From Raja brachyura (taxonomy: Eukaryota): 64,000 nucleotides of DNA. Of the stretch, positions 2,016-41,700 are shown one piece after another. A model generated the notes under the pieces. That model did no database searches and had not been told where the DNA came from. It saw only the letters and a list, made by a program, of their open reading frames with translations. A program made the position numbers and the translations under genes. The DNA is taken from positions 36,766,001 to 36,830,000 of the forward strand of contig OY740805.1 in the NCBI GenBank assembly GCA_963514005.1. Reading direction: 5' to 3'. How positions within the stretch are numbered: position 1 is the stretch's first letter; the number at the start of each line of letters is the position of its first letter.

Positions 2016-2465
2016 TCAGTGATGACGAACTGGCGGACGCTGAGCATTTACGGTTGCGTACACAACCTGTTGTTCCTTTCTTCTGGGATTCTTCTTCTGC
2101 TTGCTCGATGCTGGGTTTTCCGTCGGAGCCGGATGTCTCAAGGCGGAGTAGACGACCGGGTCTTCCCTTCCACCTGCCGCCGAAGCTCGATTCTCCATCG
2201 GAGCCGGATGTCTCAAGGCGGAGTAGACGACCGGGTCTTCCCTTCCACCTGCTGCCGAAGCTGGATTATCCGTCGGAGCGGGATGTTTCAAGGCGGAGTA
2301 CACGACCGAGTCTTCATATCCACCTGCCGCCGACAGGGGTCTGGCTCCGCCGGGGTCTTTGACCCGAGCCCCATTCTCTCTGGCACCGTGACCCGAACGG
2401 TGATTCCTGGTCGACTTTTTGATGTTCAGGTCAGCATATATGATATTTGTCGATGTGTCATTTTC
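2016..2465 (-). CDS. Gene A terminal cytoplasmic exon with five ITIMs
   Basis: Acceptor tctgttgcattccag|GAAAATGAC (phase 0). Encodes IIYADL, VVYSAL x3 and VVYATV, all matching I/V/L/S-x-Y-x-x-L/V. Confidence 0.88.
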   Translation of the reverse strand, partial: ENDTSTNIIYADLNIKKSTRNHRSGHGARENGARVKDPGGARPLSAAGGYEDSVVYSALKHPAPTDNPASAAGGREDPVVYSALRHPAPMENRASAAGGREDPVVYSALRHPAPTENPASSKQKKNPRRKEQQVVYATVNAQRPPVRHH

Positions 2466-5400: not shown

Positions 5401-8400
5401 TGTTTATTGTCTATTGTCTATTTAATTCACAAAATGGCAAAGAACTAATGATCAAGTCAGAGGAAACATTTAAAGTCTAATTGACTACATACCTTAGCCC
5501 CATTTTCTGTTCCGGTTCCTTTACCTGTAATATATTGTGAACAAGTTACATATTTCAAGCGGTGAAACAAAATAACTAGCAATAATAAAATTCGATTTCA
5601 TTCAATAGAGGATGTGGCCTATGAGAATATAGTTCCTTCATTAACATAACTTTACTCTTCATAAACATAACCTCGCTCGTACAAATTTATATTTTCTCTG
5701 TGACATTGTGTTTTTAACATATAGTCATACGGCACCGAAACATGCTTCCTCCCACCTTTCCCATGTCGACCAAGTTGTACCAGTTACGCCGGTCCCATTT
5801 CACGGGAGTTTCCCCCGCCAAGGTTACCATGTAATCCCGTGCTACCTCCTCCATGGTCGGGTAGTCGACGACTAAACCGTCTCCCCCACCTGGTTTGCCA
5901 GGAGAGAAGGGGGCTATGGACCCACAGCAGGACCAAACACAACACATGTCAAAGGGCGGATGAGCTTCTGGAGAGCCAACGGCCACCCACACTTCAGTAG
6001 AAGTTGCGATCATTGTCGTACATGCAATTGTNNNNNNNNNNNNNNNNNNNNNNNNNNNNNNNNNNNNNNNNNNNNNNNNNNNNNNNNNNNNNNNNNNNNN
6101 NNNNNNNNNNNNNNNNNNNNNNNNNNNNNNNNNNNNNNNNNNNNNNNNNNNNNNNNNNNNNNNNNNNNNNNNNNNNNNNNNNNNNGCGGTAGTCCCCAGG
6201 AACTGGAAGACAGAGATGTGTGGTGCGTCCGTCACTGTTCCCGTCGGAAACCAGCACCACTGCGTCGCTAATGTTTTCAACAATGTTGAATCTCACGTTT
6301 TGGCCGCATGTCTCTAAACATTTCGTTGGCACACCAACGCCTCTACTTCCTTAGAAGGCTTAGGAAGGTTGACGTGTCCCCCACACCTCTACAGGTGCAC
6401 CATAGATAGCATTTGATCAGGTTGCATCACAGCTTGGTTTGGAAACAACTCCATCAAAAACAAACGCTATTGCATTGAATTGTGCACGCAGCCCAGACCA
6501 TCAGACAAAACCAACCCCCTTCCTATTGACTCCATTTGTAACTCACGCTGCCTCGGCAAGACCAGCAGCATAATCAATGACCACTCGCACCCTGGCTCCA
6601 AGCAAGGATTTCATTGTCGTGTCTGGGACACATGACAATAAACTCTCTTGAATTAACTTGACTTGACGGAGATACAGAGATAAGGAAGTGTAAGGTATGA
6701 GAAGGTGGCGGAGGGGGGCGGAGATCAAGGGAGAGGGTACTGTTTCTCCTTCTCGTTCTCACTCCGTACATGTTCTTATCTCTGTGTCTCCCTCTCCCCT
6801 GACTCTCAGTCTGACTCAGGGTCCCGACCTGAAATCTTTCCCATTCCTTCTGTCCAGAGATGCTGCCTGTCCCGCTGAGTTACTCCAGCATTTTGGGTCG
6901 AAACCACATTCTGCAGTTCGTTCCCACACATTGAGATAATAAATTTGTGTTTGCTGCAAATTTAATAATCCGCTGTGTCATGTGTCGTCCCTCCCTCCAC
7001 ATTCGGAACTTGTTCCTCCTCGTATTCCCTTCTCAGAAGCTTCCTCGAGTACTTTTTGGGACTAATAAATAACCATATAACAATTACAGCACGGAAACAG
7101 GCCTTCTCGGCCCTTCCAGTCCGTGCCGAATATTTATTTTCCCCTAGTCCCATCTACCTGCACTCAGACCATACCCCTCCATTCCCTTCCCGTCCATATA
7201 CCTATTCACTTTACTTTTAAATGTTAAAATCGTTCCCGCCTCCACCACTTCTGCTGGAACATCATTCCACACAGCCACCACTCTCTGAGTAAAGAAGTTC
7301 TCCCTCATGTTACCCCTAAACTTCTGTCCCTTAAATAGACGAAGATCTTGCTAGTATTATATATGCATACACAAGATTATTTCTCGCTTCCGATTGGTGC
7401 AAAATAAACTCTACAATCTGTGCAATACATTCATTTTTTTGATGAAAACGAAAAATGCTGGAATAACAGAGAGTCAGGTAGCATCTCTGGAGCGCCGGAG
7501 CCCCCGGTTCGATCCTGACTACGGGTGCTGTCTGTACGGTGTTTGTACGTTCTCCCCGTGACCCGAGTGGGTTTTCACCGAGATATTCGGTTTCCTCCCG
7601 CACTCTAACGATCAACAGGTTTGTATGACACTTGTCTAAAAAAGAATGCTGGAGCGATCGAAGGTCGATAAAAATGCTGGAGAAACTCAGCGGGTGAGGC
7701 AGCATCTGTGGTGAGAAGGTATAGGCGAAGTTTCGGGTCGAGAGCTTTATTCAGACTGATGTCGGGGGGGGGGGTGGGTGGGGGGGGGCGGGAAAAATAA
7801 AGGAAGTAGTCGGGGAAGGGTGGGACGTGGGAGAACCGGGAAGGAGAGGGGAAGGAGGGAGAAAGCAAGGGCTGCCTAAAATTAGATAAGTCAATGTTCT
7901 TACCGCTGGGGTGTAAAGTACCCAAGCGAAATATGATGTGCTGCTCCTCCAATATCCCGTGGGCCTCACTCAGGACAGAAAGCTCAGATTAGGAATGGGA
8001 GGGGGAGTAACCGGGCGATCAGGTTGGTTAACACTGACTGGGCGGAGGTGTTCAGCGAAGCGATCGCCGAGCCTGCGCTTATGTAGATGACACTTAGAAC
8101 AGCGGATGCAGTAGATGAGGTTGGAGGAGGTGCAGTTTGGTTTGGTATAACTGCATAATTGTCCCTCGTGTACGTCGGATAGTGTTGATGTGCGGAGATC
8201 GCTGGTCCGAAGGGCCTGTTTCCGCACTGCATCTCTAAAATAAACTAAACTAACACATGGACAGGACCTTTAGAGCCCAGGAGACTTAATCCTCCTTGGA
8301 TTTCCTTCTGAGTTCTAATGCTTGCGTTCGCGTACCAAGGAAAGAGGAAATTGCTTCCATGTTATTACCTGGAGATCGACCACGGCGTCGAAGGAAAATG

Positions 8401-11400
8401 ATGAGAATCAGTACCATCCCGAGCAACGCTAAGCCCAAAAGTGCATATACAAGCGGAAGAATATAATCTTGATTAGAATGCGATTCATTGCCGCCCCGAT
8501 CAGACCCTGTTGGGAAATAAAAGTACAGTAAAAAAAATACAGCAACATGTGGCTGTGCAGGCCAAGTCAATTTATATAATTTTAAGGCGGAGATTGATAG
8601 ATTAATTATTAGTACGGGTGTCGGGTTTTATGGAGAGAAGGCACTAGATTGGGTTTTTTTTAGTTCAGATATAATTTGGAGATACAGCGCGGAAACAGGC
8701 CCTTCGGCCCACCGAATCCGCACCGATCAGCGATCCCCATACATTAACACTACTCTACACACTCAAGGGACAATTTACTTTTATACCAAGCAATTAACCT
8801 ACAAACCTGTACGTCTCTGGAGTGTTACAGCCCAGCGGTATGAATACTGACTTCTCTAATTCCAAGTAACTCTTGCATCCCCGCTCTCTCCGTCGCTCCC
8901 CACCCTAGTCCTCCCACGTTTCACTGCCCCTCTTGATTAATTTTACTGATGGCATGCCCTCTTGTCACCTTCCCCTCAGCCAACATCATCGGCCTGGTTA
9001 TCGTCTGCTTTGATCTGTCGTTCTCACATCTCACATGCTCATTGTACCAGAGACAATACACAATAGACAATCGGTGCAGGAAAGGTGCCATTCGGCCCTT
9101 CGAGACAACACCGCCCTTCAATGTGATCGTGGGTGATCATCCCCAATCAGTACCCCGTTCCTGCCTTCTCCCCATATCCCCTGACTCCACTATCCTTAAG
9201 AGCCCGATCAGCTCTCTCTTGAAAGTATCCAGAGAACCCGCCTCCACCGCCCTTTGAGGCAGAGAATTCCACAGACTCACAAATCTCTGGGTGAAAAAGT
9301 GTTTCCTGGTCTCCGTTCTAAATGGCTTACCCCTTATTCTTAAACTGTGCCCCCTGGTTCTGGACTCCCCCAACATCGGGAACATGTTTTCTGCCTCCAG
9401 CGTGTCCAAACCCTTAATAATCTTTAAATAAGATTCCCTCTCATCATTCCAAACTCCAGAGTATACAACCCCAGCCGCTACATTCTCTCAGCATATGGCA
9501 GTCCCATCATACCAGGAGTTAACCTTGTAAACCAAGGTTGCACTCCATCAATAGCACGAATGCCCGTCCTCAAATTAGGGGACCAAACTGCACACAATAC
9601 TCCAGGTTTGGTCTCACTAGGGCCTTCCATATCCCTCTCTCCTGACTCTCAGTCTGAAGAAGGATCCCTTCTTCACAGACAACCCGAGACGTCGCCTGTT
9701 CATTTCCCCCAGAGATGCTGCCTGACCCGCGGAGTTACTCTAGCATTTTGTGTCCATCCAAAGGCAAGTGGAGATAGACACAAAAAGTTTCTTCGGACTG
9801 AGAATCAGGGGAGAGGGAGACAAGAGGTATGGGAGGGTACAAAGAGCATGTGAGGTGTGAAATTGACAGATCAAAGCAGACGATTATCAAGATGATGAAT
9901 GGGTCCCCACCCGAAACGTCACCCATTCCTTCTCTCCAGAGATCCCGCCTGTCCCCCTGAGTTGCTCCTGCTATCTTCTGTGTAAACCAGCATCTGGAGT
10001 TCATCACATTTACCCATCTCCAACGCTTTCCGCCTTCCGCAGAGACCGTCCCCTCCGCAACTCCCTGGTTAACATCCCTTCCCAACAAACCACCCCCTCC
10101 CCAGGTACCTTCCCCTGCAACCGCACAAGATGCAACACCTGTCGCTACACCTCCTCCCTCGACTCTGTGCAGGCACCCGGACAGTCCTTTCGGGTAAGGC
10201 ATAGGTTCACTTGCACCTCCTCTAACCTCATCTACGGTAACAGGCGAGACCTAACACAGACTTGGCGATCGTTTCGCTGAGCACCTACGCACAGACCGCC
10301 TGAACCAACCTGATCTCCTGGTTGCTAAACAATTTAATTATTCTGTTAAAGAAGGAACTGCAGATGCTGGAGAATCGAGGGTTACACAAAAAGCTGGAGA
10401 AACTCAGCGGGTGCAGCAGCATCTAAGGAGCGAAGGAGATAGGCGACGTTTCGGGTCGAGACCCTTCTTCAGACTGGTCAGGGATCAGGGAAACAAGAGA
10501 TATAAACAGTGATGTGGAGAGATAAGGAACAACGAGTGAAAGATATGCAAAAAAGTATTGGTGATAAAGGAAGCAGGCCATTGTAAGCTGTTTGTGGTGT
10601 CAAAATGAGAAGCTAGTGCGACTGGGGGGGGGGGGGGGGGGGGAGATGGAGAAGGAATGTCAGGGCCAGAGGGTTGAGGGAGAGGTGGGGGGGGGGGGGG
10701 GGGAGGCAGTCTGGGTTAACAGAATTGAGAAAATTCAATGTTTAAGCCCAGAGGATGCAGACTCCCCAAGCAGAATTTAATTATTCTTCCGATTCGCACA
10801 GAGAACATTTTGTCCTAGGTCTCCTCCATTGTCCGAGTGATGATAAATGCATATTGGAGGAACAGCATCTCACATTTCGCTGGTGCAGATTACACCCCAG
10901 TGGTATGAATATTAATTTATCTCACTTCAGGTAGCCCCGACATTCCCTCTCTCTCTATCCATCCACCAACCACGTCGCACCAGCTTCTCGTTTTCACCCA
11001 ACAGACAGCTAACAATGGCTTGTTTCCTTTATCATGGTTACTTTTTTTTGCATATCTTTCATTCGTTTTATCTCAACATCATCGCCTATATCCCTCGTTT
11101 CCTTTATCCCTAACCAATCTGAAGAAGGGTCTCGACCCGAAACGTCACACATTCCTTCTCTCCAGAGATGTTGTCTGGTCCGCTGAGTTACTCCAGTGTT
11201 TAGTGTCTATCCTCAGTTCTTTCCTGCACACGAATGCAAATGAAGTCGGATTAAGAATGTTTTTTAGAACAGTAAAGATAACGTTAAGGTACTGCAAACT
11301 TACATGTGACTGTGACATCTGTGCTGTCCGCCAAGTTAGGTGTGACTGTGACATGTGTGGTGTCCGCCAACTTAGGTGTGACTGTGACTTCTGTGCCGTG

Positions 11401-14400
11401 ACCATTATGTATTTCCCCTTTGAAATCAGTCACCCGGCAGTAATACTTTCCTGTATCGTTGATTTTGAGGTAAATGATTTCGATGGATTCATTTAGAATT
11501 CCCGTTGAACAATGTTTCAGAACGCGACCATAATAGTCGCCGCTCGTGTTGGAAACGATACGAGTTTGCACGTCCACGTACCAACTAATGGCCCCAAGTG
11601 AACTGCTTGTCTTGCCACAGTTTAGCCGCACAGTCCCGCCTTCAGTAACTGTGACCTGCGTCGGTGATTGTATGATCGATTCGTCGGATCCAACAGCAGC
11701 TGGAACGAGAAATAAACTTATAGTTTCGGCGCTGGCCTTTCGGCCCACCCAGTCAATGGCATCCATTACACCTATCTACCCAATCCCATTTACTCGCGTT
11801 TCATGGCCTTTCTCTGTCTCAGCGTTTCAAGTGCTTGGCGAGACGCCTCTTAAATGTCGTGAGACAGCCCGTCTTCGATCCTGACCGCGGGAGCTGTCTG
11901 TCTGTGTGGAGTTTGTACGTTCTCCATTACATTGCCAGCATTTCCTCCTGGGAGCTCTTGCTTCCTCTCTCATCCCAAGGACGTGCTTCCTGATCGGTAA
12001 TTAACAGCTGTAAACAACTCCTTGCATCCATCCAGCTAACTGAGACAAAAGGACACTGTATAGCCACCAACTGGTCACAGGAGTGGAAGGCAACCTCATC
12101 TCAATTACAGAGCTGCATTTCTTCACCAGATAAAAGCTATCCAGGGTCTGACCTTCCCAGAGGAGCATGGGTGAAGCATGGGTGAACAACAGACAGCCAA
12201 CCATGCCATCTCTGGGTGACGGCACCACCACCCACCAAATGGAGCTCAGGGCCTGGCAGACATTGACGCCAACAGAAACAACAACCTGGCTGCTCAACAC
12301 CCGGCTTCAGATCTAACTATTCCTTTGGTTTATATTTCATTCGCAAGAAGAAGAACAGCTGTAAATTTCCCCTGGTATATGGAGGAGTCGGAGTGACCGT
12401 AGCGTGAATGTGAATTAAGAGAGAACTGGATTGCTCTTCAACGGAAAAAAAATGGCTTCCTTGCCACTTTCTAGAAATAGGGGATTTCGCCCACAATGGA
12501 CAATAATCGTGTTGGTTTAGTGTGGTTTAGAGACACAGCGCGGATACAGTCCCTTCGGCCTACCGAGTCCGGTGCGACCAACGAACCCCGCAAATTAACG
12601 CTATTCTGCACATATTGGGTACAAGTTACATTTATTCACAGAGGCAAATTAGCCTACAAACCGGCACGTCTTAGGAGTGTGGGAGGAAAACGGAGCTCCC
12701 GGTGAAAACTCACGCAGGGAGAACGTAAACTCTGTACAGACAGAATCCATAGTCAGGATCGAACCCGGGGTCCCTGGCGCTGTAAGGCACCACCTCTACC
12801 GTCCCTCGTGCGTGTTGCCCCTCTCGTAAGCTTTCCTGAACCCTCTGTACTTTCCTTACAGTTCCTCCATCTTCCTCGCCAGGTTATGTTCCCCCATCTT
12901 CCCCGCCAGCTACACCGTCTAGTCTGCATTGGTATCAACAACACATCACTCACCTGGTTCAAATTATACCTCTCCGGCAGCACTCAGTTTGTACAACTTA
13001 AAAATGTCCAATCACAACCCTCCCCAGTCACCAGCTGTGTTCCCCAGGGCTCAGTCCTGGGGCTCCTCCTTTTTATAATTTATTTACACCCCTTCGGTTT
13101 TATTTTCAGGAAATACAACATTCAATTTCACTGCTACGCAGATGACACCCAGCTCTACCTGTCCACCAAACCCACTTCCATGCTTCCTCCCTCTTCCCTG
13201 TTTGACTGCTTAGTGGAAATTAAAACCTCGTTTCCTCACAACTTCCTCAAACTCAACAGTGACAAAACTGAAATTCACCTTGTTGGCTCCAAATCCTCCC
13301 TATCTAACTGTCCCAATTTCTCACTCACCATTAACAATTCCATAGTCCCTCCTTCCCCTCAGGTCAAGAGTCTGGGTGTCATCCTTGTTAGCACACTTTC
13401 CTTTGAAAAACACATCAATAATCTCACTCGGTCTGCTTACTTCCCCCTACGCAGTACCCACCGTCTTCGTCCATCACTCAAACCTAACAGCACTGCTACT
13501 CTCATCCACGCCCTCGTCACCTCCCGTATTGGTTATTGTAACTCTCTCCTCTCTGGTTTACCCCACAAATCCATCCATAAACACCAATTGGTCCAGAACT
13601 CAGCTGACCGGATTATCACCAGAACCGCATCCCCCGAACACATCACTCCCATCCTCAAACAACTGCACTTGCTCCATATCCAATATCGCATTGATTTTAA
13701 GATTCCCCCCCCCCCCCCCCATTCACTTTCAAAGCCCCCCACAATCTCGCTCCTACAAACCTCTCTGAACTCCTTCAGCCTTACACTGCATCCCGAACTC
13801 TCCGATCCTCTTCTTCCTCCTTGCTCTCCACTGCGTCTACCCGCCTGTCCACGATGGGGTTCAGAGTCTTCAGCCGTTCTGCCCCTCACCTCTGGAACTC
13901 TCTCCCACTATCCATCCGTACCATAGAGTCTCTCCCCACCTTTAAAACCTCCCTCAAATGTCACCTATTCAGACGGGACTAGCCCACGTAACTCCACTTT
14001 CTATCAAATTCATGGATATGTTGTTTCTGTCTCATTTTATCTATATATTTGTAATTTGCTTGTTTTAACCGTAAGGTGTTCTTGAGTGATCTGAAAGGCG
14101 CCCATAAATAAAATGCATTAAACGCATTGTGGTCGTATGTTTGTTATTCCGATCTTGTGCTTCAATATTCATTGATTTTGCAGCGTCGAAAGCAGCCATG
14201 AAATCAGCACGGATTATATCAAATTATGCACCGATTCTCTCTTGGTCTTGTGCACATAGTCTCTTGCCAGAGTAGGGGAATCAAGGACCAGAGGACAGAG
14301 GTTCAAGGTGAAGGGGAAATTTTCAATAGGAATCCGAGGGGTATGTTTTCACACAGAGGGCGGTCGGTATATGGAGCAAGCCACCAGAGGAGATTGCTGA

Positions 14401-17400
14401 GGCTGGGCTAGGTTCCCATCGTGTAAGAAGCAGTTAGACAGGTACATGGATATGACAGGTTTCGAGGGACATGGTCCAAGCGCACGCAGGTTGGACTAGG
14501 GTTGCTGGGGCATTGTTGGCCGGTGTGCGCAGGTAGAACCGAATGGTCTGTTTCCACGCTGTATCTCTCTATGCCTCTATGACTGATCTTATAAACATGG
14601 AAAAATAGCAGGTGTAGGCCATTCGGCCCTACGAGCCAGCACCGCCATTCAATATTATCATGGCTCATTATCTAAATCCGTACCCCGTTCCTGCCCTCTC
14701 CCCATATCTCCCGACTCTGCTATATTTAAGAGCTCTATCTTGAAAGCATCCAGTGAATCGTCCTCCACTGCCTTCTATGGCAGATAATTCTGCAGATTCA
14801 CAACTCTCTGGATGAAAGTTTTTTTTCTCATCTCAGTCCTAAATATCCTAAACCCCTTATTCTTCAACTGGGACCCCTGGTTCCTATATTTATAATGGTT
14901 TTCTGTGCCTAAATAATGAATTTCTGTGCATAAATCTGATCTGGCAAAGCTTCGTTGTTGAGACGTGTGGTGGCCGGTGTTCAGAATGGTTTTTAGAACA
15001 ATAAAGGTAAAGTTATGATAACGGAAACTTACGTGTGACTGTGACTTCTGTGCCGTGGCCATTATATATTTCCCCTGTGGAACCAGTCACTCGGCAGTAA
15101 TATTTTCCTGTCTCGTTCATTTTGAGATCAGTGATTTCGATGGATTCTTGTAGAATTACCGGTGAACGATTTTTCAGAACGCGGCCATAATAGTCGCCGC
15201 CCTCATTGGAAACGGCACGAGTTTCCACGTCTTTGTACCAACTAATGGCCCCAATTCTACTGTTTGCCTTGCCAACAGATGTACAGTTTATCCGCACAGT
15301 CCCGCCTTCAGTGACTGTGACATTCTTCGGTGATTGTATGATCGATTCATCGGATCCAACAGCACCTGAAATCAGAAACAATCTTATAGTTCCGGCGCTG
15401 GCCTTTCGGCCCACCCAGTCAATGCCATCCAATACACCTATCTACACAATCCCATTTACACGTGTAGGGATCGTGGCCTTTCTATATCTCAGCGTTTCAG
15501 GTACTTAGCGAGACGCCTATTAAATGTTATGAGACAACCCAGGTTCGATCCTAACCCCGGGTGCTATCTGTCTGTGTGGATTTTGCGCGTTCTCCATTGT
15601 ATTGCCTGCGTTTCACCTGGGCGCTCTTCCTTGCTCTCTCATCCCAATGACGTGCGTCCTGATAGGTAATAAACAGCCCAAAACAACTTCTTGCATCCAT
15701 CCAGCCAACTGAGACAAAAGCACACCGGGTAGCCACCAAGTGCTCACAGGAGTGGAAGGCAACCTCATCTCCATTACACAGCTAAACCTCTTCACCATAA
15801 AAGCTGTTCAGGTTCTGACCTCCCCAGAGGAGCATGGTGCAGATCAACAAACTTGGTACTGGAGTTGGCCGTTTCAACGCCAGAGGCCAGCCTGTGAATG
15901 CGGAGCAGAACAACAGACAGCCAACCATGTCATCTCTGGGCGCCCGCTTTATCACCAAATAGAGCTCAGGCCCTGGCAGACATTGACGTTAACAGAGACA
16001 ACAACCTGGCTGCTCAACACCCGGCTTGAGATCTAACCATTCCTTTGGTTTATGTTTCATTCGCAAATTACCCCTGGTATATGGAGGAGTCGGAGTGACC
16101 GTATCGTGCATGTGAATTAAGAGGGAACTGGATTTCTCTTCGATGGAAAGAAATAAATGTCTTACTGCTTTCTAGAAATAGGGGATTTCGGCCACAATGG
16201 ACAATAATCGTGTTGGTTTAGTGTGCTTTAGAGATACATCGCAGATACCGGTCCTTCGGCCCACCGAGTCAGCTGCGACCAATGATCCCCGCAAAATAAC
16301 GCTATTCTGCACTCACTAGGGCCAATTTACATTTCTCACCGAGGCCAATTAACCTACAAACCAGTACGTCTTTGGAGTGTGGGAGGAAAACGGAGCTCCG
16401 GGTGAAACCCCACGCAGGGAGAACAGAGAGAACCTGTAGTCAGGATCGAACCCTGGGTCCCTGGCGCTGTAAGACTGCAACTCTCCCGCCGCGCCACCGT
16501 GTCGCCCCTCTCTTAAGCTTTCCTAAACCCACGGTACCTTCCTTACAGTTCCTCCATCTTCCCCGCCAAGTTATGGTCTTATGTTTCTTATTTCGATTTT
16601 GTGCATCAACATTCGTGGATGTTGCAGCGTCGAAAGCGACCGTGAAATCGTCACGGATTATATCAAATCATGCACCGATTCTCTATTGATCCTGTACACT
16701 GATGCACATACTCTCTAGCCCAGAGTAGGGGAATCGAGGACCAGAGGACAGAGTTTCAAGGTGAAGGGGAAAATATTTAGTAGGAATCCGATGGGTATTT
16801 TTTTCACACAGAGGGCGCTCGAAGTATGGAGCAAGTCGTCAGAGGAGTTCGTTGGGGTTGGGACTATCCCATCGTTTAAGAAGCAGTTGGACAGGTACAT
16901 GGATAGGACTGGTTTCTATGGGCTGGTGTCGCTGGGACACTGTTGGCCGCTGTGGGCAAGTTGAGCCGAAGAGCCTGTTTCTACGTTGTATCACTTTATG
17001 ACCATGTGACTGATCTTGCACATTCTAATACAAAAATAAACGTAGAACAATGGGTGCAGGAGTAGGCCATTCGCCCCTTCGAGTCAGCACCGCCATTCAA
17101 TATGATCATAGCTGATCATCTAAAATTAGTACCCCGTTCCTGCTTTCCCCCCATATCTCTTGATGCTCTTAATCGAACTCCCTCTTTAAGGCATCGAGTG
17201 AATCGTCCTCCACTGCCTTCTGTGGCAGAGAATTCCACAGATTCACAACTCTCTGGGTGAAAAGGCCTACCCTTTATTTTCAAACTGTGTCCCCTGGTTC
17301 CTACATATATAATAAATGTCTGTGCCTCAATCTGATCTGAACACGTTTCGTTGTTGAGGCGTGTGGTGGCCAGTGTTAAGAATGTTTTTGAGAACGGTAA

Positions 17401-20400
17401 AGATAAAGTTAAGATAACGGAATCTTACGTATGACTGTGACTTCAGTGCCGTGGCCATTATATATTTTCTCTGGGAAAACACTCACTCGGCAGTAATATC
17501 TTCCTGCGTCGGTCATTTTGAGGTCAGTGATTTCGATGGATCCGTTTAGAATCCCCGTTGAAATAATTTCCAAAACGCGACCATGATAGTCGCCACTCGA
17601 GTTGGAAACGGTATGAGTTTGAGTTTCCACGTCTTTGTACCAATTAATGGCTCCAATTGCCTTGCCAACAAATGCACAATTAATCCGCACAGTCCCGCCT
17701 TCAGTAACTGTGATCTGCTCCGGTGATTGTATGATCGATTCATCGGATCCAACAGCACCTGAAATTCAGAAATAACAATATAGTTTCGGCGCTGGGCTTT
17801 CGGCCCATCCAGTCAATGCCATCCAATACCCTATCTACACAATCCCATTTACTCCCGTTAGGATAATGGCCTTCCTATGTCTCAGCATTTCAAGTGCTTG
17901 GTGAGACGAGTCTTAAATGTCATGACACAATGCGGGTTCGATTCTTTACCTCTCTCCCTCTCTCCCTCTCTCCCTCTCTCCCTCCCTCCCTCTCCCCTTT
18001 CTCCCTTTCTCCCTCTCTCTCTACCTCTCTCACTCTCTCCCTCCCTCCCTCTCCACTTTCTCCCTTTCTCCCTCTCTCTCTCCCTCTCTCCCTCTCTCCC
18101 TCTCCCTCCCTTACCATCACCTCCCCTCCACTCTTTCTCCATCTCCCTCTCCCTCCCCCCCCCCACTGTTCTCACTTCCGCACACTCCGTCCCCCACCCC
18201 CTCTCGCTCCCCTCGCNNNNNNNNNNNNNNNNNNNNNNNNNNNNNNNNNNNNNNNNNNNNNNNNNNNNNNNNNNNNNNNNNNNNNNNNNNNNNNNNNNNN
18301 NNNNNNNNNNNNNNNNNNNNNNNNNNNNNNNNNNNNNNNNNNNNNNNNNNNNGAAAGGACCAAGCGACCACACTCCACTGCATCTTTGAACGGATACCTG
18401 TAGGCGGAAACAAACACACAAATAGAGGTCAGGCAGCATCTGTGGAAGACATGGGAAATCCGTCTGCAGAGAGGTCCAGACCCGAAACGTCTGCAGTTCC
18501 CATTTCCCACCTCCAGAGGCGCTCCCTGACCTGCTGAGTTACTCCAGCACTTAAGTCCTTGTGCATTAACTAGCACATGTGGTTCATTGTTTTTACCTCC
18601 AGAGATGCTGCCTGACCCGATTAGTTCCTCCAACACGATGGGGGGTTTTTTATACCGTCTTGTGCAGCATTGTGAAATCCCTTCAGAAGGAACAAGCTAG
18701 ACCGCTTTTCCGGAGGAAACAGGACGTTAGCTGCCTCAAAGGTGACGAAGCCTTTTAACTATTTGCGTGCAAACAATCCACTTAGTGGAAGATCTAAAAG
18801 TAAGATGTTTATTGATCACTCAAATTCAGAATTCGGGATTTCGTTCATTGGCCGAACGGATAATCTGGATCTGCACTCAGTTTAGTGTACCGAGGTACAG
18901 AGATGCTGCCTGTCCCGCTGAGTTAGATGGAGCTCTTAAATATAGTCGAATCAGTGGATATGGGGATATGGCAGGAACGGGGTACTGCTAGGGGATGATC
19001 AGCCATGATCATAGTAAATGGCGGTGCTGGCTCGAAGGGCCGAATGAGGGAGAGAATTCCGCAATCTCACAACTCTACGTGTTTCCTCATCTCCGTTCTA
19101 AATGGCTTACCCCTTAATCTTAAACTACGACCCCTGGTTCTGGACTACCCCAACATCCTGCCTCTAGCGGGTCCAAACCCTTAATAATCTTATATGTTTC
19201 AATAAGATCCCCTCTCATCCCAAATTCCAGTGTATACAAGCCGAACTGCTCCATTCTCTCAGCATATGACAGTCCCGCCATCCCGGGAATTAACCTGCTG
19301 AAGCTACGCTGCACTCCCCCAATAGCAAGAATGTCCTTCCTCAAATTTGGAGACCAAAACTGCACACAAAACTCCATTTGTGGTCTCACTAGGGCCCAGT
19401 ACAACTGCAGAAGGACCTCTTTGTTCCTATACTCAATCGTCTTGTTAACAAGGCCAACATGCCATTCGCTTTCTTCACCGCCTGTTGTACCTGCATGCTT
19501 ACTTTCATGGACTGATGAACAAGGACCCCCCATATCCCGTTGTACTTCTCCTTTTCCCAACTTGACAACATTTAGATAATAATCTGCCTTGATCTTTTGT
19601 TACCAAAGTGGATAACTTCACATTTATCCTCGTTAAACTGCACCTGCCATGCAACATTTTTACCCAGAGAGTTGTGAATTTATGGAATTCCCTGCCACAG
19701 TGGGCAGTCGGCAGTGGAGCAGTGGAGGCCAAATCACTGGATGGATTTAAGAGAGACGATCAGCCATGATCATATTGAATGGCGGTGCTGGTTCGAAGAC
19801 CGAATGGCCTCCTCCTGCACCTATTTCCTCAGTTTCTATTTTCTCTGTTTCTGTAAATTTGCTAATGTGGCGTAATCCTTCATCTAATTCATTAACATAT
19901 ATTGTAAATAGCTGCGGTCCCAGCACCGAGCCTTGGGGTACCCCATTAGTCAGTCCCTGCCATTCTGAAAGGGACCTGTTAATCCCTCCTCTTTGTTTCC
20001 TGTCTGTCAACCACTTCTCTATCCATGTCAGCACTCTACCCCCAATACCACGTGCCCTAATGTTGCCCACTAACCTCCCATGTGGGACCTTATCAAATGC
20101 TTTATGAATGTCCAGGTACACTACATCCACTGGTTCTCCCTTGTCCATATTCCAAGTTACATCTCAAATATTACCAGACGATTTGTCAAGCATGATTTCC
20201 CCTTCGTAAATCCACGCTGACTCGGATCGATCCTGATACTCCTATCCAAATGTGCAGCTATTTCATCTTATATGATTGACTCTAGCATCTTCCCCACCAC
20301 CAAAGAACCGGTCTATTATTCCTCGTTTTCTCTCTTCCGCCTTTCTTAAAGAGAGGGATAACATTAGCTACCCTCCAATCCACAGGAACAGATCGTAAAT

Positions 20401-21015: not shown

Positions 21016-21047
21016 TAAAAAAAATCATCAAGATTGCTCACAGCTAG

Positions 21048-21057
21048 TTTCACTTCC
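21048..21057 (-). promoter_or_regulatory. ETS-IRF composite element (EICE-like), gene A promoter
   Basis: GGAAGTGAAA matches GGAAnnGAAA, about 33 bp upstream of the putative ATG. Confidence 0.5.
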
Positions 21058-21514
21058 TCACAAGCAGGCAACTAAACTTCCTTAATTTTGTAATTACATT
21101 CTAAGAAACGACGTGTGTGCTTAGTAACGACGTGTGGAAATTTATTTTGAGAATACCGCATCTGCAGCCTTGTTAACGCCAAGTTGTTTAGTTCCTCTTT
21201 ATTTACCGCCCTTCTGCATTCACAGGTTCACATATGTGTCCACCTGCTAGATATCTCGCGAAGTTGGGGGTTTAAAGTGCACACTCTCCACTCTCCAACT
21301 AGAACACACGGATTGCGTGGGGATTCAACATGGCGGATACGCAGGCAGGTGGGACTGGTGCGGATGAGACATGTGAGAGTGTGGACAGGTTGGACCGAAG
21401 GGCCTGATTCCATTCTGTATGCGTCCATGACTCTGTCAAAATCAAAAGGCAAAGACATAACAAGCTCGATTAACTCGGCGGGACAGACAGTATCTCTGGA
21501 GAGAAGGAATGGGT

Positions 21515-21542
21515 GACGTTTCGGGTCGAGACCCTTCTTCAG
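21515..21542 (-). ncRNA. Minimal hammerhead-ribozyme-like motif (Penelope LTR)
   Basis: Same 28-mer on the minus strand. Confidence 0.5.
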
Positions 21543-22100
21543 ACTGAGAGTCTGGGGAAAGGTAAACGTGAGATGTGCAAAAAAAAGTACAATGATAACG
21601 GAAACAGGCAATATACAATAGACAATACGTACAGGAGTAGGCCATTCGGCCTTTCGAGCCAGCACCGCCATTCAATGTGATCATCCACAATCTGTACCCT
21701 GTTCCTGCCTTCTCCCCATATCTCCAGACTTCGCTATTTTAAGAGTTTTTTTCTCGGTCCAGTGTCTTTAATTCCACGCGATCCTCGATACACAGACAAG
21801 ATAAGTTAAACATTAAAAAAAACGTGTATCAGTCTCTTCCGCTCCCTCCCTCTCTCTCTCCCCCACCCCCCCCCCCCCCTCAGCCCCCCCTCTCTCCACC
21901 TCTCTCCAGCCACCTATCTCCCCGTCTCCTCCCTCTCCCTTCTCTCTCCCCTCTTTCTCCCCCCCTCTCCCCTTCTCCGTCTCCACCTCTCCCCACTACC
22001 TTCCTCCTCTCCCTACTCCCCCACCACCCCCCCTTCCATCCATGAACCCCCTCCAGGGTAACACATTCACCAACACTCAGTGTTCTATCGTATTATACTG

Positions 22101-22300
22101 GCGGTCACGGTGGCGCAGCGGCAGAGTTGCTGCCTTACACCGCTTACAGCCGCCAGTGTCCAGGTTCAATCCCGATCACGGATGCTGTCTGTACGGAGCT
22201 TGTGTAGTGTGTCGTGTTAATGTGCGGCGACCGCTGGTCGGTGCGGATTCGGTGAACCGAAGGGTCTGTTTTCGCACTGTATTTCTAAACTAAACTAAAC
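22101..22300 (+). mobile_element. tRNA-derived SINE (paralog 45301-45500; other copies near 1725-1972, 12505-12820, 16205-16505, 39375-39690)
   Basis: A box TGGCGCAGCGG, B box GGTTCAATCC, (CTAAA)n tail. Confidence 0.8.
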
Positions 22301-24475: not shown

Positions 24476-25309
24476 TATTATATATATGTTTTGTGTCTAC
24501 TTTTCTATTAACATTTATGTTGCACTTGTAATGAGTTGAAACGCAAATTTCAGTTCAGTTCTGGGCCGGTTTCTTCCCATCTGTTATCAGGTAACTGAAC
24601 CATATGACCAGAACCATAGATTAGTGCTGAACTACTATCTACCTCATTGGTGACCCTGGGACTATCATTGATCGGACTTCATCGGATCGCACTTTGCACT
24701 AAACGTTATTCCCTTATCATGTGTGTATACACTGTAAATAGCTCGATTGTAATCATGTTTTGTTGTTCTGCTGACTGGTTAGCACGCAACAAAAGCTTTT
24801 CACTCTACCTCGGTACACGTGACAATAAACTAAACTGATAACTGCAATCCTGCTGCTTGGTCCTTGGTCCTGTATTTCTTGGAACGTGGGAACGTAAGGA
24901 ACGTGAGAGCACTGTGTTGAAATTGCAGAACCTTTGTACTGTTGTTAGTAGCAAAACACCCGAAATGTTTCACAATGCAGGAAATGTCCTCAGGTTAAGT
25001 ATTTCTGCTATTTCAGTGTTTCCACAACGCGATTGAGACATGACTCGACTGATGCTTGAGAACCACTTGAAACCTATTATGTTAATTTATATGCTGGAAA
25101 AAAACCGGTCTTGTGGAAAAACAGTCGGGGACAAAGAAAAATTGTTCCCATGTAACCTCCCTGATAATTGTTTCTTAGGATCTCAGGCTGTCGATTTCGC
25201 TACAAGTACGCATTTATATTTACAATCAATCTCTTGCGCAATAATACTCGATTCAGCAATGTAACATTAGTACATTAGCTTGCAGTAATACAGTTAAATA
25301 TATATTTTA

Positions 25310-32798: not shown

Positions 32799-35700
32799 CT
32801 GAGAAAATAAAATAGATACATTAGTATATCACAAGCACAGGCATAAAAATCATAAATAGCTTTGAACACAATTGACTTCAATTATTGTTATTAAAGTTCC
32901 TGTCAATTATATGACAACATAGCTCCTAGTCATAGAGTCATAGACTGATACAGTGTGAAAGCAGCCTCTTAAGGCCCACTTTCCCCTCAACGGCCAACAT
33001 GTCCCAGTTACACTAAATCCAGCTGCCTACACTTGTGCTATATCCCTCCAAACATGTCCTATCCATGCCCCATCCAAGTCCCGTATGAGCTCTTTATTTC
33101 TGGCCAGGATCGGTATAGTTTTCCTTGTCATGTTGCTTTTATTTTGTTGCAGCAAGTCTACGTTGCAAGAATCAAGAGGCTTTGCATTAGTTACTAATTT
33201 GTTGTTGATTTGGTTTATTATATTATATAAGTTTGTTGTACCGACAACCGGACAATTGAATTCTTATTTGCAGCAGAATAACAGGCCTGTATATACAACA
33301 ATCTTAGATAAAATATAATAAACAAAACCAACAATAAATTTGTATCTAGTGCAAACACGAAAATACAAGATCCATGGTGCAACACAGGAAAGCCCATAAA
33401 TGTTCATAGTTGAGCCTAGTCTTCTGTGGTGTTCAAAAGCCTGATAGTTGAAGGGAAGAAGCTGTTCTTGAACTTTGTGGTCACGGTTTTCAGACTCGGA
33501 TATCTTGTTCTTGATGGTTGGAGTGAAATGAGAGTGTGGCCAAGGTAGTGTGGGATTTCAATGAAAATATATGTATTTTAGATTAATGTAGTTGGTAAAT
33601 TAAGTTAATTTAAGTTTAGTTTAGTTTAGTATTGTTAAGCTTTGTTTAGATTAGTATAATTTCGTTTGGTTGGCTTTGGTTTGGTTAAGTTTAGTTAAGT
33701 TTAGTTCAGGTTTTTTTTGTATAGTTAAGTTTAGTTTAGTTTAGTTTCGTTTAGTTTCATTTTGGGTATTTTATTTTATTTTAGTTTAGCTCATTTTAGT
33801 TTAGTTTAGTTTAGTTTGTAAGGAAATATTTTCACTGTGGTAGCAACTCGCAGGTGACAATAAAATGCACCATTGTCCAGTGAGCTCAGCTGCTAATGCA
33901 ACCCACACATGCAGCAGGCAATCCTCTTACCGTTTGACCAGCCTGTTAGGCTTCTTTTCTACGACTGACAAATCCACAAGACTCCCAAGAGCGGATGATG
34001 AAGACTATTATAACGTTGATCACAATGAACGTTGCAAGTTTCACTCCCATTACAAGCAGCTGCCAACGTAATCCCCATGCAGGGCTTTCTACAAGGCTCC
34101 GGCCTGTAAGAATAAAACATCAAGTTCACCAATTACTTTCCCAGTTTCATTCTGTTTCCTTCCAATCTTATACACCGAAATGTTCCCACTATCATTCTAA
34201 ACGTAGACCAATTCGTACACTTGCCTGAAAAGGAACAACAGATGTTGGAATTTTGCATAGAATACAAAGTCCTGGAGCAAGTCAATGGGTGAGGCAGCAA
34301 CGGGTGGAGAACATGGATAGGCGACGTTTCTGGTGGGCACCCTTCTTCAGCATCCCACAATGTCACCTATCCATGTTCTCCAGAGATGCTGCCTCGCCCG
34401 CTGTGTTACTCCAGCACTTTGCGTATGTTTGTTTGTAACCCCGCATCTGCAGTCCCTTTTATCTCCACATTGATTGCTTGTGGAAATAGCCGAAGCAGCT
34501 GCTGCCTCTGAGGGCCAGCAGCCTGGCCTCAATGCTGACTGCCGGTGTGGAGTTTGCATGGTCACCATGTTATTGCCTGCGTTTCCCTGGGCGTTACTGC
34601 TTCCTCTCTCATCCCAAAGACGTGCGTCCTGATTGGTAATTAACAGCTGTAAATTACCCCTGCTATATGGAGGAGTCAGAGTGAGCGTAGCGTGCATGTG
34701 AGTTATGAGGGAACTGGATTGCTCTTCGATGGAAACAATGGTCGCTGTATGGAACAAGCTGCCAGAGGAGGTAGTTGAGGATGGGATATTCCCATCGTTT
34801 AAGAAGCAGTTGGTCAGGTACATCGATAGGACAGGTTTTGAGTGATATTGACCAAGCGCAGGAAGGTGGGATAAATGTCACTGGGACATTGTGGGCCTGT
34901 GTGGGCAGTAGACAATAGAAAATAGATGCAGGAAGAGGCCATTCGGCCCTTCTAGCAGGCACCGCCATTCACTGTGATCATAGCTGATCATTCACATTCA
35001 GTACCCCGTTCCTGACTTCCCCCATATCCCTTGACTAAGCTATCTTTAAAAGCTCTATCGAACTCTCTCTTGAAAGCATCCAGAGAATTGTCCTCCACTG
35101 CCTTCTGAGGCAGAGCATTCCACAGATTCACAACTATCTGGGTGAAACGGGTTTTCCTCGTCTCAGTCCTAAATGGCCTACCCCTTGTTCTTAAACTGCG
35201 CTCCCTGCTTCCTAGATATATCATTAATTGCTGTGCCTGAATCTGAACTGACATAGTTTCGTTGTTGAGGCGTGTGGTGGCCGGTGTTAACAATGTTTTT
35301 TAGAACAGTAAAGACAAAGTTAAGATAACACAAACTTACGTGTGACTGTGACATCTGACCCGTACGCAAACTCACGTGTGACAGTGACATCTGTGCTGTC
35401 CGCCAACTTAGGTGTGACTGTGACTTCTGTGCCGTGACCATTATGTATTTCCCCTGTGAAACCAGTCACTCGGCAGTAATACCTTCCTGTCTCGTTCATT
35501 TTGAGGTCAATGATTTCGATGGATTCATTTAGAATTCCCGTTGAACAATGTTTCAGAACGCGACCATAATAGTCGCCGCTCGTGTTGGAAACGATACGAG
35601 TTTGCACGTCCACGTACCAGCTCATGGCCCCAAGCGAACTGATTGTCTTGCCACAGTTTAGCCGCACAGTCCCGCCTTCAGTAACTGTGACCTGCTTCGG

Positions 35701-38700
35701 AGATTGTATGATCGATTCGTCGGATCCAACAGCACCTGGAACGAGAAATAATCTTATAGTTTTGCCGCTTGCCTTTCGGCCCACCCAGTCAATGCCATTC
35801 ATTACACCTATCTACACAATCCCATTTACTCTCGTTTCATGGCCTTTCTATGTATCGGGGTTTCAAGTACTTGGCGAGACACCTCTTAAATGTCGTGAGA
35901 CAGCCCGTCTTCGATCCTGACCGCGGGTGCTGTCTGTCTGTGTGGAGTTTGTACGTTCTCCGTTATATTGCCTGCATTTCCCCTGGGCGCTCCTGCTTCC
36001 TCTCTCATCCGAAAGAGGTGAGTCCTGATAGGTAATTAACAGCTGTAAACAAGTCCTTGCATCCATCAAGCCAATTGAGACAAACGCACACTGGATAGCC
36101 ACCAAGTGGTCACAGGAGTTGAAGGCAACCTCATCTCCATTACACAGCTACAGCTCTTCACCAAATAAAAGCTGTCCAGGGTCTGACCTCCCCAGAGGAG
36201 CATGGGTGAAGCTCAACAGACTTAGTACTGGAGTCGGACGTTTCAATGCCAGCATGTGGAGATGGGGGCTCCGCCAGAGGCCAGCCTGTGAATGCGGAGC
36301 AGAACAACAGATAGCCAACCATGTCATCTCTGGGTGCCCGGTTTACCACCCACCAAATGGAGCTCAGGGCCTGGCACACATTGACGCCAGCAGAGACAAC
36401 AACCTGGCTGCTCAACACCCGGCTTCAGATCTAACTATTTCTTTGGTTTATGTTTTATTTGCAAGAAGAAGAAGAACAGCTGTAAATTTCCCCTGGTATA
36501 TGGAGGAGTCGAAGTGACCGCAGCGTGAATGTGAATTTCGCCCACACTGGACAATAATCGTGTTGGCATAGTGTGGTTTAGAGATCAGCGTGGATACAGT
36601 CCCTTCGGCCCACCGACTCCGCTGCGACCAACGTTCCCCGCAAATTAACGCTATTCTCCACACATTAGGGACAAGTTACATTTTTTCACCAACCACTTTT
36701 AGCCTACAAACCGGTACGTCTTTGGAGTGTGGGAGGAAAACCCGGTGAAAACCCACTCAGGGAGAACGTAAACTACGTACAGACAGAATCCATAGTCAGG
36801 ATCAAACCCGGGGTCCCTGGCGCTGTAAGGCAGAACCCCTACCGCCGCGCCACCGTGTTGCCCCTCTCTTAAGCTTCCCTGAACCCACTGTACTTCCCTT
36901 ACAGTTCCTCCATCTTCCTCGCCAGGTTATGTTCCTCCATCTTCCCCGCCAGGTCCACCGTCTAGTCTGCATTGGTATCATCAACACATAATTGTCCTGG
37001 CTCACATCATACCTCTCCGGCAGCACTCAGTTTGTGCAACTTAAAAATGTCCAATCACAACCCTCCCCAGTCACCAGTGGTGTTCCCCAGGGCTCAGTCC
37101 TAGAGCCCCTCCTTTATATAATTTATTTACATCCCCTTGGTTTTATTTTCAGGAAATACAACATTCAAATTCAATGCTACGCAGATGACACCCAGCTGTC
37201 CACTAAACCCACTTCCATGCTTCCTCCCTCTTCCCTGTCTGTCTGCTTAGTGGAAATTAAAACCTCGTCTCCTCACAACTTCCTCAAACTCAACAGTGAC
37301 AAAACTGAAATTCACCTTGTTGGCTCCAAATCCTCCCTATCTAAATGTTCCAATTTCTCACTCACCATTAACAATTCCATAGTCCCTCCTTCCCCTCAGG
37401 TCAAGAGCCTGGGTGTCATCCTTGTTAGCACACTTTCCTTTGAAAAACACATCAATAATCTCACTCGGTCTGCTTACTTCCCCTTACGCAGTACCCACCG
37501 TCTTCGTCCATCACTCAAACCTAACAGCACTGCTACTCTCATCCACGCCCTCGTCACCTCCCGTATTGGTCATTGTAACTCTCTCCTCTCTGGTTTACCC
37601 CACAAGTCCATCCATAAACACCAATTGGTCCAGAACTCAGCTGACCGGATTATCACCAGAACCCCATCCCCCGAACACATCACTTCCATCCTCAAACAAC
37701 TGCACTTGCTCCCTATCCAATATCGTATTGATTTTAAGATTCTCCCCCTCACTTTCAAAGCCCTCCACAATCTCGCTCCTACAAACCTCTCCGAAATCCC
37801 TCAGCCTTACACTCCATCCCGAACTCTCCGATCCTCTTCTTCCTCCTTGCTCTCCACTCCATCTACCCGCCTGGCCACGATGGGGTTCAGAGTCTTCAGC
37901 CGTTCTGCCGCTCACCTCTGGAACTCTCTCCCACTATCCATCCGTACCATAGAGTCTCTCCCCACCTTTAAAACCTCCCTCAAAAGTCACCTATTCAGAC
38001 GGGGCTAGCCCACGTAACTCCACTTTCTATCAAATTCATGGATATGTTGTTTATCTCTCATTGTATCTGTATATTTGTAATTTGCTTGTTTTAACCGTAA
38101 GGTGTCCTTGCGTGTTCTGAAAGGCGCCCATAAATAAAATGCATTAAATGCATTATGGTCGTATGTTTGTTATTCCGATTTTGTGCTTCAAAATTCATGG
38201 ATTTTGCAGCGTCGAAAGCGGCCATGAAATCAGCACGGATTATATCAAATTATGTACAGATTCTCTCTTGGTCTTGTGCATATAGTCTCTTGCCCAGAGT
38301 AGGGGAATCGAGGACCAGAGGACAGAGGTTCAAGGTGAAGGGGAAATTTTTAATAGGAATCCGATGGGTATTTTTTCACACAGAGGGCGGTCAGTGTATG
38401 GAGCAAGCCACCAGAGGAGATTGTTGAGGCTGGGCTAGGTTCCCATCGTGTAAGAAGCAGTTGGACAGGTACATGGATGTGACAGGTTTCGAGGGATATG
38501 GACCAAGCTCACGCAGGTGGGACTAGGGTAGCTGGGGCATTGTTGGCCGGTGTGGGCAAGTAGAGCCGAATGGCCTGTTTCCACGCTGTATCTCTCTATG
38601 CCTCTATGACTGATGTTGCACATTGTAAATAAAGACAATTAAACATTAAAAAATAGGTGCAGGAGTAGGCCATTCGGCCCTACGAGCCAGCACCGCAATT

Positions 38701-41700
38701 CAATATTATCATGGCTCATCATCTAAATCAGTACCCCGTTCCTGCCCTCTCCCCATATCTCCTGACTCTGCTATGTTTAAGAGCTCTATCTTGAAAGCAT
38801 CCAGTGAATTGTCCTCCACTTCCTTCTGTGGCAGATAATTCTGCAGATTCACAACTCGCTGGATGAAAGTTTTTTCTCATCTCATTCCTAAATGGCCTAC
38901 CGCTAATTCTTAAACTGGGACCCCTGGTTCCTATATTAATAATGATTTTCTGTGCCTAAATAATGAATTTATGTGCATAAATCTGATCTGACAAAGCTTT
39001 GTTGCTTTCAGGACGTACGTCCTGATAGGTAATTAACAGCCCAAAACAACTTTTTGCATCCATCCAGCCAGCTGAGACAACAGACAGCCAACCATGTCAT
39101 CTCTGGGCGCCCGCTTTACCACCCACCAAATAGAGCTCAGGCCCTGGCAGACATTGACTTTAACAGAGCCAACAACCTGGCTGCTCAACACCCGGCTTGA
39201 GATCTAACCATGCCTTTGGTTTATGTTTCATTCGCAAATTACCCCAGGTACATGGAGAAGTCGGAGTGACCGTATCGTGCATGTGAATTGAGAGGGAACT
39301 GGATTTCTCTTCGATGGAAAGAAATAACTGTCTTGCCTCTTTCTGGAAAAAGGGGATTTCGGACACAATGGACAATAATTGTGTTGGTTTGGTGTGGTTT
39401 AGAGATACAGCGCGGATGCCGGTCCTTCGGCCCACCGAGTCCGCTGCGACCAACGATCCCCGCAAAATAACCCTATTCTGCACACACTAGGGACAATTTA
39501 CATTTTTTCACCGAGGCCAATTAACCTACAAACCAGTACGTCTTTGGAGTGTGGGAGGAAAACGGAGCTCGCGGTGAAACCCCACGCAGGGAGAACGTAA
39601 ACTCCGTACAGAGAGAACCCGTAGTCAGGATCGAACCCGGGGTCCCTGGCGCTGTAAGACAGCAACTCTCCCGCCGCGCCACCGTGTTGCGCCTCACTTA
39701 AGCTTTCCTGTACCCACGGTACCTTCCTTACGGTTCCTCCATCTTCCCCGCCAAGTTATGGCCTTATGTTTCTTATTTCGATGTTGTGCGTCAACATTCA
39801 TGGATGTTGCAGCGTCGAAAGCGACCGTGAAATCGTCACGGATTATATCAAATCATGCACCGATTCTCTATTGATCCTGTACACTGATGCACATACTCTC
39901 TAGCCCAGAGTAGGGGAATCGAGGACCAGAGGACAGAGTTTCAAGGTGAAGGGGAAAATATTTAGTAGGAATCCGATGGGTATTTTTTTCACACAGAGGG
40001 CGCTCGAAGTATGGAGCAAGTCGTCAGAGGAGTTCGTTGGGGTTGGGACTATCCCATCGTTTAAGAAGCAGTTGGACAGGTACATGGATAGGACTGGTTT
40101 CTATGGGCTGGTGTCGCTGGGACACTGTTGGCCGCTGTGGGCAAGTTGAGCCGAAGAGCCTGTTTCTACGTTGTATCACTTTATGACCATGTGACTGATC
40201 TTGCACATTCTAATACAAAAATAAACGTAGAACAATGGGTGCAGGAGTAGGCCATTCGCCCCTTCGAGTCAGCACCGCCATTCAATATGATCATAGCTGA
40301 TCATCTAAAATTAGTACCCCGTTCCTGCTTTCCCCCCATATCTCTTGATGCCGTTAGCTCTTAATCGAACTCCCTCTTTAAGGCATCGAGTGAATCGTCC
40401 TCCACTGCCTTCTGTGGCAGAGAATTCCACAGATTCACAACTCTCTGGGTGAAAAGGCCTACCCTTTATTTTCAAACTGTGTCCCCTGGTTCCTACATAT
40501 ATAATAAATGTCTGTGCCTCAATCTGATCTGAACACGTTTCGTTGTTGAGGCGTGTGGTGGCCAGTGTTAAGAATGTTTTTGAGAACGGTAAAGATAAAG
40601 TTAAGATAACGGAATCTTACGTATGACTGTAACTTCAGTGCCGTGGCCATTATATATTTTCTCTGGGAAAACACTCACTCGGCAGTAATATCTTCCTGCG
40701 TCGGTCATTTTGAGGTCAGTGATTTCGATGGATCCGTTTAGAATCCCCGTTGAAATAATTTCCAAAACGCGACCATGATAGTCGCCACTCGAGTTGGAAA
40801 CGGTATGAGTTTGAGTTTCCACGTCTTTGTACCAATTAATAGCTCCAATTGCCTTGCCAACAAATGCACAATTAATCCGCACAGTCCCGCCTTCAGTAAC
40901 TGTGATCTGCTCCGGTGATTGTATGATCGATTCATCGGATCCAACAGCACCTGAAATTCAGAAATAACAATATAGTTTCGGCGCTGGGCTTTCGGCCCAT
41001 CCAGTCAATGCCATCCAATACCCTATCTACACAATCCCATTTACTCCCGTTAGGATAATGGCCTTCCTATGTCTCAGCATTTCAAGTGCTTGGTGAGACG
41101 AGTCTTAAATGTCATGACACAATGCGNNNNNNNNNNNNNNNNNNNNNNNNNNNNNNNNNNNNNNNNNNNNNNNNNNNNNNNNNNNNNNNNNNNNNNNNNN
41201 NNNNNNNNNNNNNNNNNNNNNNNNNNNNNNNNNNNNNNNNNNNNNNNNNNNNNNNNNNNNNNNNNNNNNNNNNNNNNNNNNNNNNNNNNNNNNNNNNNNN
41301 NNNNNNNNNNNNNNNNNNTCCACTCTTTCTCCATCTCCCTCTCCCTCCCCCCCCCCCCACTGTTCTCACTTCCGCACACTCCGTCCCCCACCCCCTCTCG
41401 CTCCCCTCGCNNNNNNNNNNNNNNNNNNNNNNNNNNNNNNNNNNNNNNNNNNNNNNNNNNNNNNNNNNNNNNNNNNNNNNNNNNNNNNNNNNNNNNNNNN
41501 NNNNNNNNNNNNNNNNNNNNNNNNNNNNNNNNNNNNNNNNNNNNNNNNNNNNAAGGACCAAGCGACCACACTCCACTGCATCTTTGAACGGATACCTGTA
41601 GGCGGAAACAAACACACAAATAGAGGTCAGGCAGCATCTGTGGAAGACATGGGAAATCCGTCTGCAGAGAGGTCCAGACCCGAAACGTCTGCAGTTCCCA

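Follow-up and report, generated by a model that had tools for sequence, protein, structure and literature searches.

A coding tandem repeat of an ITIM-bearing unit, variable in copy number between homologs and probably between alleles of a skate NCR3/NKp30-like receptor gene

Paired activating and inhibitory leukocyte receptors, among them the KIR, LILR, PIR and NKG2 families and the teleost NITR, combine oppositely signalling modules with ectodomains that are nearly identical. Within those families the genes vary in their number of ITIMs, and conversion hits their ligand-binding exons; receptor polymorphism in paired families usually concerns the ligand-binding portion or which genes are present. 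Homogenisation of the near-identical ectodomains of oppositely signalling receptors by gene conversion is described in an excerpt of PMC3210942. The skate locus reported here has the same arrangement, but unlike those families it includes a gene (gene B) in which the ITIM is itself a tandem unit of varying number, and conversion has apparently moved that unit between tails. Coding VNTRs are known from other receptors (DRD4 exon 3, PSGL-1 and the neck of DC-SIGNR) and are similar as in-frame length polymorphisms, but their units are stalk, neck or loop sequence rather than ITIMs. The EPIYA-C segment of Helicobacter pylori CagA is likewise a tandem phosphotyrosine segment whose number, from one to three copies, sets SHP2 binding (excerpt of PMC4623810); CagA, however, is a bacterial effector with no sequence relation to the skate protein, and its one-copy form is a single docking site whereas the skate tail starts at three. 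In the literature covered, to which most subscription papers do not belong, we found no account of the skate repeat or of alleles of a host receptor that form a series in ITIM number. The repeat in gene B is real, coding and expressed, its ITIM number changes among homologs and probably among alleles, and the receptor that contains it is predicted from sequence to be of inhibitory type.

The window analysed is a stretch of 64,000 nucleotides, in which the exons, repeat units and motifs positioned below all lie on the minus strand. The repeat is part of the final exon of a spliced gene that encodes an NCR3/NKp30-like receptor with three V domains and an uncharged membrane segment. Gene B begins with a leader exon that has a readable start (ATG; 18353..18383) and matches the leader of P0014, followed by a first (17429..17758), a second (15033..15365) and a third (11304..11699) VJ-type Ig V exon, all recognised by Pfam V-set and splice sites, the third also containing a 36-bp tandem repeat (TRF) that lengthens the stalk. 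A stalk and uncharged transmembrane exon (8369..8506, homologous to P0018), a cytoplasmic micro-exon of 32 bases (5493..5524, phase 1 to 0) and the last exon (2016..2465) complete the gene; the last exon follows an AG acceptor in phase 0 and contains 149 open codons plus stop, encoding a cytoplasmic tail with five ITIMs. Pfam V-set was present in four of four V exons tested, and from 17758 to 2016 all six exons have AG/GT borders and are joined in one frame of 558 codons with a single terminal stop. The 36-bp repeat (window 11297-11396 and, in a sibling gene, 35331-35435) duplicates the end of the V exon including its splice donor, dead donor copies adding 24 aa of stalk; in the V exon near 35 kb a middle copy retains GTGAG at 35375, a possible alternative donor, and a similarly doubled segment is present in Rhinoraja P0014 and P0018. 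Introns (window 2860-5400 and elsewhere) are filled by decayed repeats visible in ORF translations, which we take to be pieces of CR1-type LINEs and SINEs.

Evidence for transcription comes from contigs of sequencing runs, 5 of 22 listed runs having been compared with the locus; none of the 22 is recorded as RNA, and we infer that X6, X2 and X10 are RNA from the splice junction itself. Contigs of these three runs depart from the genome at 2467 and continue with the letters of the micro-exon (27-29 of 30 matching), the sole one of six candidates that is conserved in the paralog, while the X1 contig runs unspliced past 2467 into the intron, so that the junction is spliced in three of four informative runs and read through in the fourth. 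The reading frame of the tail is fixed because contigs of three runs join the last exon to the predicted micro-exon; the exon is thus transcribed in the frame that the initial annotation had chosen from the letters alone, and an artefactual frame in non-coding DNA is ruled out by the spliced contigs and by homologs. In X6, a contig that covers the first V exon runs on for 16 letters beyond the donor, which itself starts with GT, and this overhang fits two V exons with exactly 16 common first letters and neither transmembrane exon. A three-V transcript of gene B would follow from this one V-to-V junction, which was found in a 16-kb comparison (likeness 85, mostly SINE/CR1 contigs) among the 15 joints listed of about 4,060.

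TRF reports the repeat at window 2119-2333 with a period of 75, 2.9 copies and 90% matches, and in translation it comprises three 25-aa units, each with VVYSAL: unit 1 (2259..2333), unit 2 (2184..2258), the middle and variable one, and unit 3 (2109..2183). They are flanked by a membrane-proximal ITIM, IIYADL (2427..2444), which is kept in Rhinoraja P0018, and a terminal ITIM, VVYATV (2049..2066), kept in P0001, P0018 and P0012. TRF and the in-register translation thus agree with the earlier description of five ITIMs in this order. All five motifs fit the ITIM consensus (I/V/L/S)xYxx(L/V) in the frame set by the spliced contigs, and none of the five is an ITSM (TxYxx(V/I)), position -2 being I or V throughout; in this the tail differs from one of PD-1 type, which combines an ITIM with an ITSM. 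With the repeat counted once, the 149 aa contain 3 strict ITIMs where 0.16 would be expected (P = 6e-4) from the six-frame density in window 1-55600 (120 in 111,196 codons). Conservation of the same motifs in homologs, together with spliced contigs in frame, is stronger proof than these statistics. The three units differ pairwise at 11, 10 and 6 of 75 bases, and units 2 and 3 have 55 identical bases in common. At window 2174-2248 the unit includes CAG/GT, which gives a single unit the form of a potential GT-AG intron of 75 bases, a reading unused in X2; tandem duplication carrying splice signals of this kind is a model of intron gain.

Unit number is 1, 2 or 3 depending on species and gene copy. 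One unit, with three ITIM-like motifs, is present in Rhinoraja P0018 and in sawfish (Pristis) P0001, and two are present in the inverted paralog, gene A. In run X10 (organism C) a gene-B-like contig (558 bases, depth 9.6, 11 other letters) skips exactly 75 bases, the two-unit state of that run resting on this one contig. Three units are present in the window, in X2 (organism B), where the depth of the 55-base node of units 2 and 3 is about twice that of the middle piece (86.4/42.1), and in X1, where the ratio is again about twofold (5.61/3). The third unit as an assembly error is ruled out by the middle-unit pieces in X1 and X2, the units differing at 6-11 bases. A single 264-base piece in X15 says nothing on unit number. 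Copy number is therefore not fixed, and the proposal in the initial annotation of a VNTR holds insofar as unit number differs between homologs and species; an allelic difference is probable, and comes from the RNA-like contigs of X6.

Run X6 derives from the same sample as X1 and matches the window. Its node depth of 188.2 divides into 50.0 for the middle piece and 138.6 for the exit with a residual below 0.05, in a fit for which 8 of 12 records were read directly and the other four solved from bin means. Contigs identical to the window have depths of 45.9-52.1 and variant contigs 59.3-70.8; the depth of the middle unit matches the former, and the variant contigs are most simply a two-unit haplotype, subject to the assembler's removal of bubbles and to phase between variant contigs being given by depth only. 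The sample matching the window thus probably carries a two-unit haplotype in addition to the three-unit one, even though DNA-like X1, at a depth of about 3, contains the three-unit form only and no second haplotype, where RNA-like X6 points to two plus three. Might the two-unit sequences instead be transcripts of a three-unit gene that lost a unit as a spliced 75-base GT-AG intron, by template switching or by assembly collapse? The skip can indeed be cut with GT..AG ends on the coding strand, and the 55 bases common to units 2 and 3 would lend themselves to such loss. We nevertheless regard this as very improbable: the share of gene-B depth that crosses the middle unit at the same junction sequence is 95% in X2, 36% in X6 and none in X10, the middle-unit depth in X6 equals that of the window-identical haplotype, the donor and acceptor contexts are weak and without a pyrimidine tract, and one- and two-unit forms are present in genomic models.

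Between the X6 variant and the window there are up to 14 differences, compared with 5 for the three-unit contigs of organism B, and the variant is closer to organism C. With gene A as outgroup and among the 40 of 46 rows listed, the variant and organism C have five derived sites in common (2023, 2086, 2339, 2345 and 2353), all non-synonymous and outside ITIM cores, while at site 2424 a derived state is common to the window and the variant, against organisms B and C and the paralog. This pattern fits alleles older than the species, introgression or a hidden paralog. The last of these would make the two-unit sequence a third gene copy that the assembly lacks or has collapsed, or that only one haplotype carries, with unit number differing between genes and not between alleles. 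The distance of the variant from the window and its likeness to organism C speak for such a copy, and gene-content variation is usual in receptor clusters of this sort. We consider it improbable all the same; the complete assembly, searched at both DNA and protein level, yielded two ITIM tails only and no third, the depth of the variant is about equal to that of the three-unit form, and its derived state at 2424 is that of the window.

The initial annotation had judged the expansion to be recent, and this stands for the third unit but not for the step from one unit to two, which is older than the two paralogs; outside the repeat, 24 of 225 bases differ between them. A stretch of 59 bases over the junction of units 2 and 3 (2146..2204) is identical to the junction of units 1 and 2 in the paralog and is a likely conversion tract; against a background identity of 89% outside the repeat, such identity has a P of 0.001 for one place and of about 0.02 over the exon. 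Over 70 bases, the junction in gene A has 7 mismatches to the first junction of gene B and 3 to the second. The identity of the third-unit junction suggests import from the paralog by gene conversion. In the simplest account, one unit would have been duplicated before genes A and B split, and gene B would then have gained its third unit by misaligned conversion from the inverted gene A. It is tempting, if rather speculative, to see in these data a balanced trans-species polymorphism of ITIM number, in which two- and three-unit alleles (four or five ITIMs) are kept across skate species, the extra ITIM coming from a paralog by conversion, and set different thresholds of inhibition against activating siblings that share the ligand-binding domain. 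An allelic series of ITIM number on one ectodomain would amount to a natural titration of the importance of inhibitory-site number.

How the units would act can be compared with better-studied tails. Tyrosines of the five ITIMs are 46, 25, 25 and 30 residues apart, a spacing suggested to be of the order used by tandem SH2 domains; in PD-1, Y223 and Y248 are 25 residues apart, exactly the repeat spacing of gene B, and the native pair activates SHP-2 less than two ITSMs do (excerpt of PMC7078208). Spacing and orientation matter to SHP-2 (PMC10231330, in the part available), and the SH2 binding pockets of SHP-1/2 are described as conserved to sharks in an excerpt of PMC12151841. After ligand binding, Src-family kinases would phosphorylate the tail tyrosines, pairs of which would bind tandem SH2 domains bivalently; five sites may then offer more usable pairs (25, 25, 30, 50 and 55 aa apart) or room for two phosphatases per tail. 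We lean slightly towards a graded tuning in which each unit adds a consensus ITIM, docks more SHP-family phosphatase and strengthens inhibition. The gain from extra units may be small, because the one-unit ancestor already had three ITIM-like motifs. A large effect is also weighed against because a consensus ITIM can be inert, that of NKp44-1 being reported to fail to recruit phosphatases (excerpt of PMC6514059), and because the effect of repeat number in CagA, where it can change SHP2 binding more than 100-fold, lies at the step from one site to two (excerpt of PMC4623810).

With the same anatomy and the same variation in number, the extra units might alternatively be neutral by-products of unequal exchange in an unstable cluster, the outer ITIMs doing the work and the copies being redundant. 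We hold this to be possible but distinctly less probable than graded tuning. Conservation across rays and sharks is highest for the outer motifs, and the cluster duplicates freely: it has a block of 9 kb that is 99.5% identical, V exons with a second tandem repeat, and V exons that are broken. Set against neutrality is the finding that VVYSAL is intact in all five units of the two paralogs even though the units differ at 4-13 of 75 bases; moreover, the forms with two and with three units seem to have been retained across species, with five derived non-synonymous sites in common, and drift alone rarely keeps such forms.

In the 264 kb formed by the window and 100 kb on each side there are 10 V exons of the subfamily, two ITIM tails and three Lys-bearing transmembrane exons. 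Besides gene B the window contains an activating-type gene with a leader exon (41553..41581, with a readable start, on the same basis as the gene B leader), a first V exon (40621..40950, identical in protein sequence to 17429-17758), a second V exon (35340..35735, by Pfam V-set and splice sites) and a transmembrane exon with a lysine and a short tail (33946..34103). Upstream and on the opposite strand are two further activating-type genes, of which one has its second V exon broken, together with the inhibitory-type gene A, an inverted paralog of gene B at a distance of 12 kb. A leader exon for gene A was not found on G000:C25 upstream of 36746724, though gene A is transcribed in X6 and X2. That five V exons might share one tail as alternative cassettes is ruled out by the second leader and the separate Lys-bearing transmembrane exon. 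V domains of activating and inhibitory types are intermixed in the tree, the first V being identical in the two window genes. Consensus ITIMs together with linked Lys-bearing siblings of like ectodomain suggest that gene B is the inhibitory member of a paired receptor family.

Within the window a segmental duplication of about 23 kb relates 18355-29446 to 41553-52674 and 11251-17934 to 35287-41126; its identity is 99.5% over 9 kb upstream of the leaders and 92% towards the transmembrane side, which suggests recent homogenisation. Two V exons of the surroundings are damaged: one at G000:C25:36836203-36836508 (-) is divergent, has its 5' end replaced by CR1-like sequence and is probably dead, and one at G000:C25:36715953-36716276 (+), in an activating-type gene, has two stop codons.

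Gene B is assigned to the NCR3/NKp30 family by several lines of evidence of unequal reach. RefSeq names its relatives 'NCR3-like', including the sawfish protein that is the best relative of the tail, and the nearest proteins belong to a skate, Rhinoraja longicauda. When the PDB was searched with a profile built from 15 sequences of the family, human NKp30 (four chains, E 8e-18 to 7e-17) came out ahead of all remaining natural single domains. A single V domain as PDB query ranked antibodies first, with no discrimination among V domains, and Foldseek, run on the modelled structure (pLDDT 82), returned TCR V domains, with no NKp30 among the matches listed; a single domain or a modelled fold identifies no more than a V domain. 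Similar to NCR3, V and a J-like segment are joined in one non-rearranging exon, the phase 1-1 exons with Pfam V-set ending in GHGTEVTV (GxGT motif), and the contig is shared with MHC class I, 6 of 12 MHC_I matches lying on C25 at 18.1-24.1 Mb and the window at 36.8 Mb (a loose linkage, 12-18 Mb apart); excerpts of PMC12227049, PMC10751288 and PMC11599192 describe NCR3 as a VJ gene that does not rearrange and is linked to the MHC. In human NKp30 there is a single V domain, the membrane segment contains an arginine and ITIMs are absent (excerpt of PMC6514059). This mammalian layout of one V, charged membrane residue and short tail is absent in gene B, which has three V exons, an uncharged membrane segment and a tail of five ITIMs, and gene B is therefore regarded as a family member and not as the NKp30 orthologue; its lysine-bearing siblings are the NKp30-like partners. 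The V-domain tree was built from rows other than mammalian ones and P0005, and word-index protein searches returned one relative each, which is weak evidence about multi-V forms.

Inhibitory tails on NCR3-like genes are not new to databases, RefSeq models of rays and sharks already showing them, and Kinlein 2021, cited in PMC10450919, is described as a paper on shark NCR3 subtypes. In humans the NKp30 family is represented by one activating gene; in skates it occurs as pairs of activating and inhibitory type with one to three V domains, a finding that bears on how NK or T cells were regulated in the most ancient lineage that has adaptive immunity. The same contig contains six further, more distant V exons of VJ type, at G000:C25:36671339-36671671 and at 35.82 and 36.19-36.22 Mb; these are other subtypes of the NCR3 family, one of them perhaps the NKp30 orthologue. 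The far end of the window (55603-64000) is occupied by an 8.4-kb satellite with a 10-bp unit (TRF, 838 copies, 77% matches).
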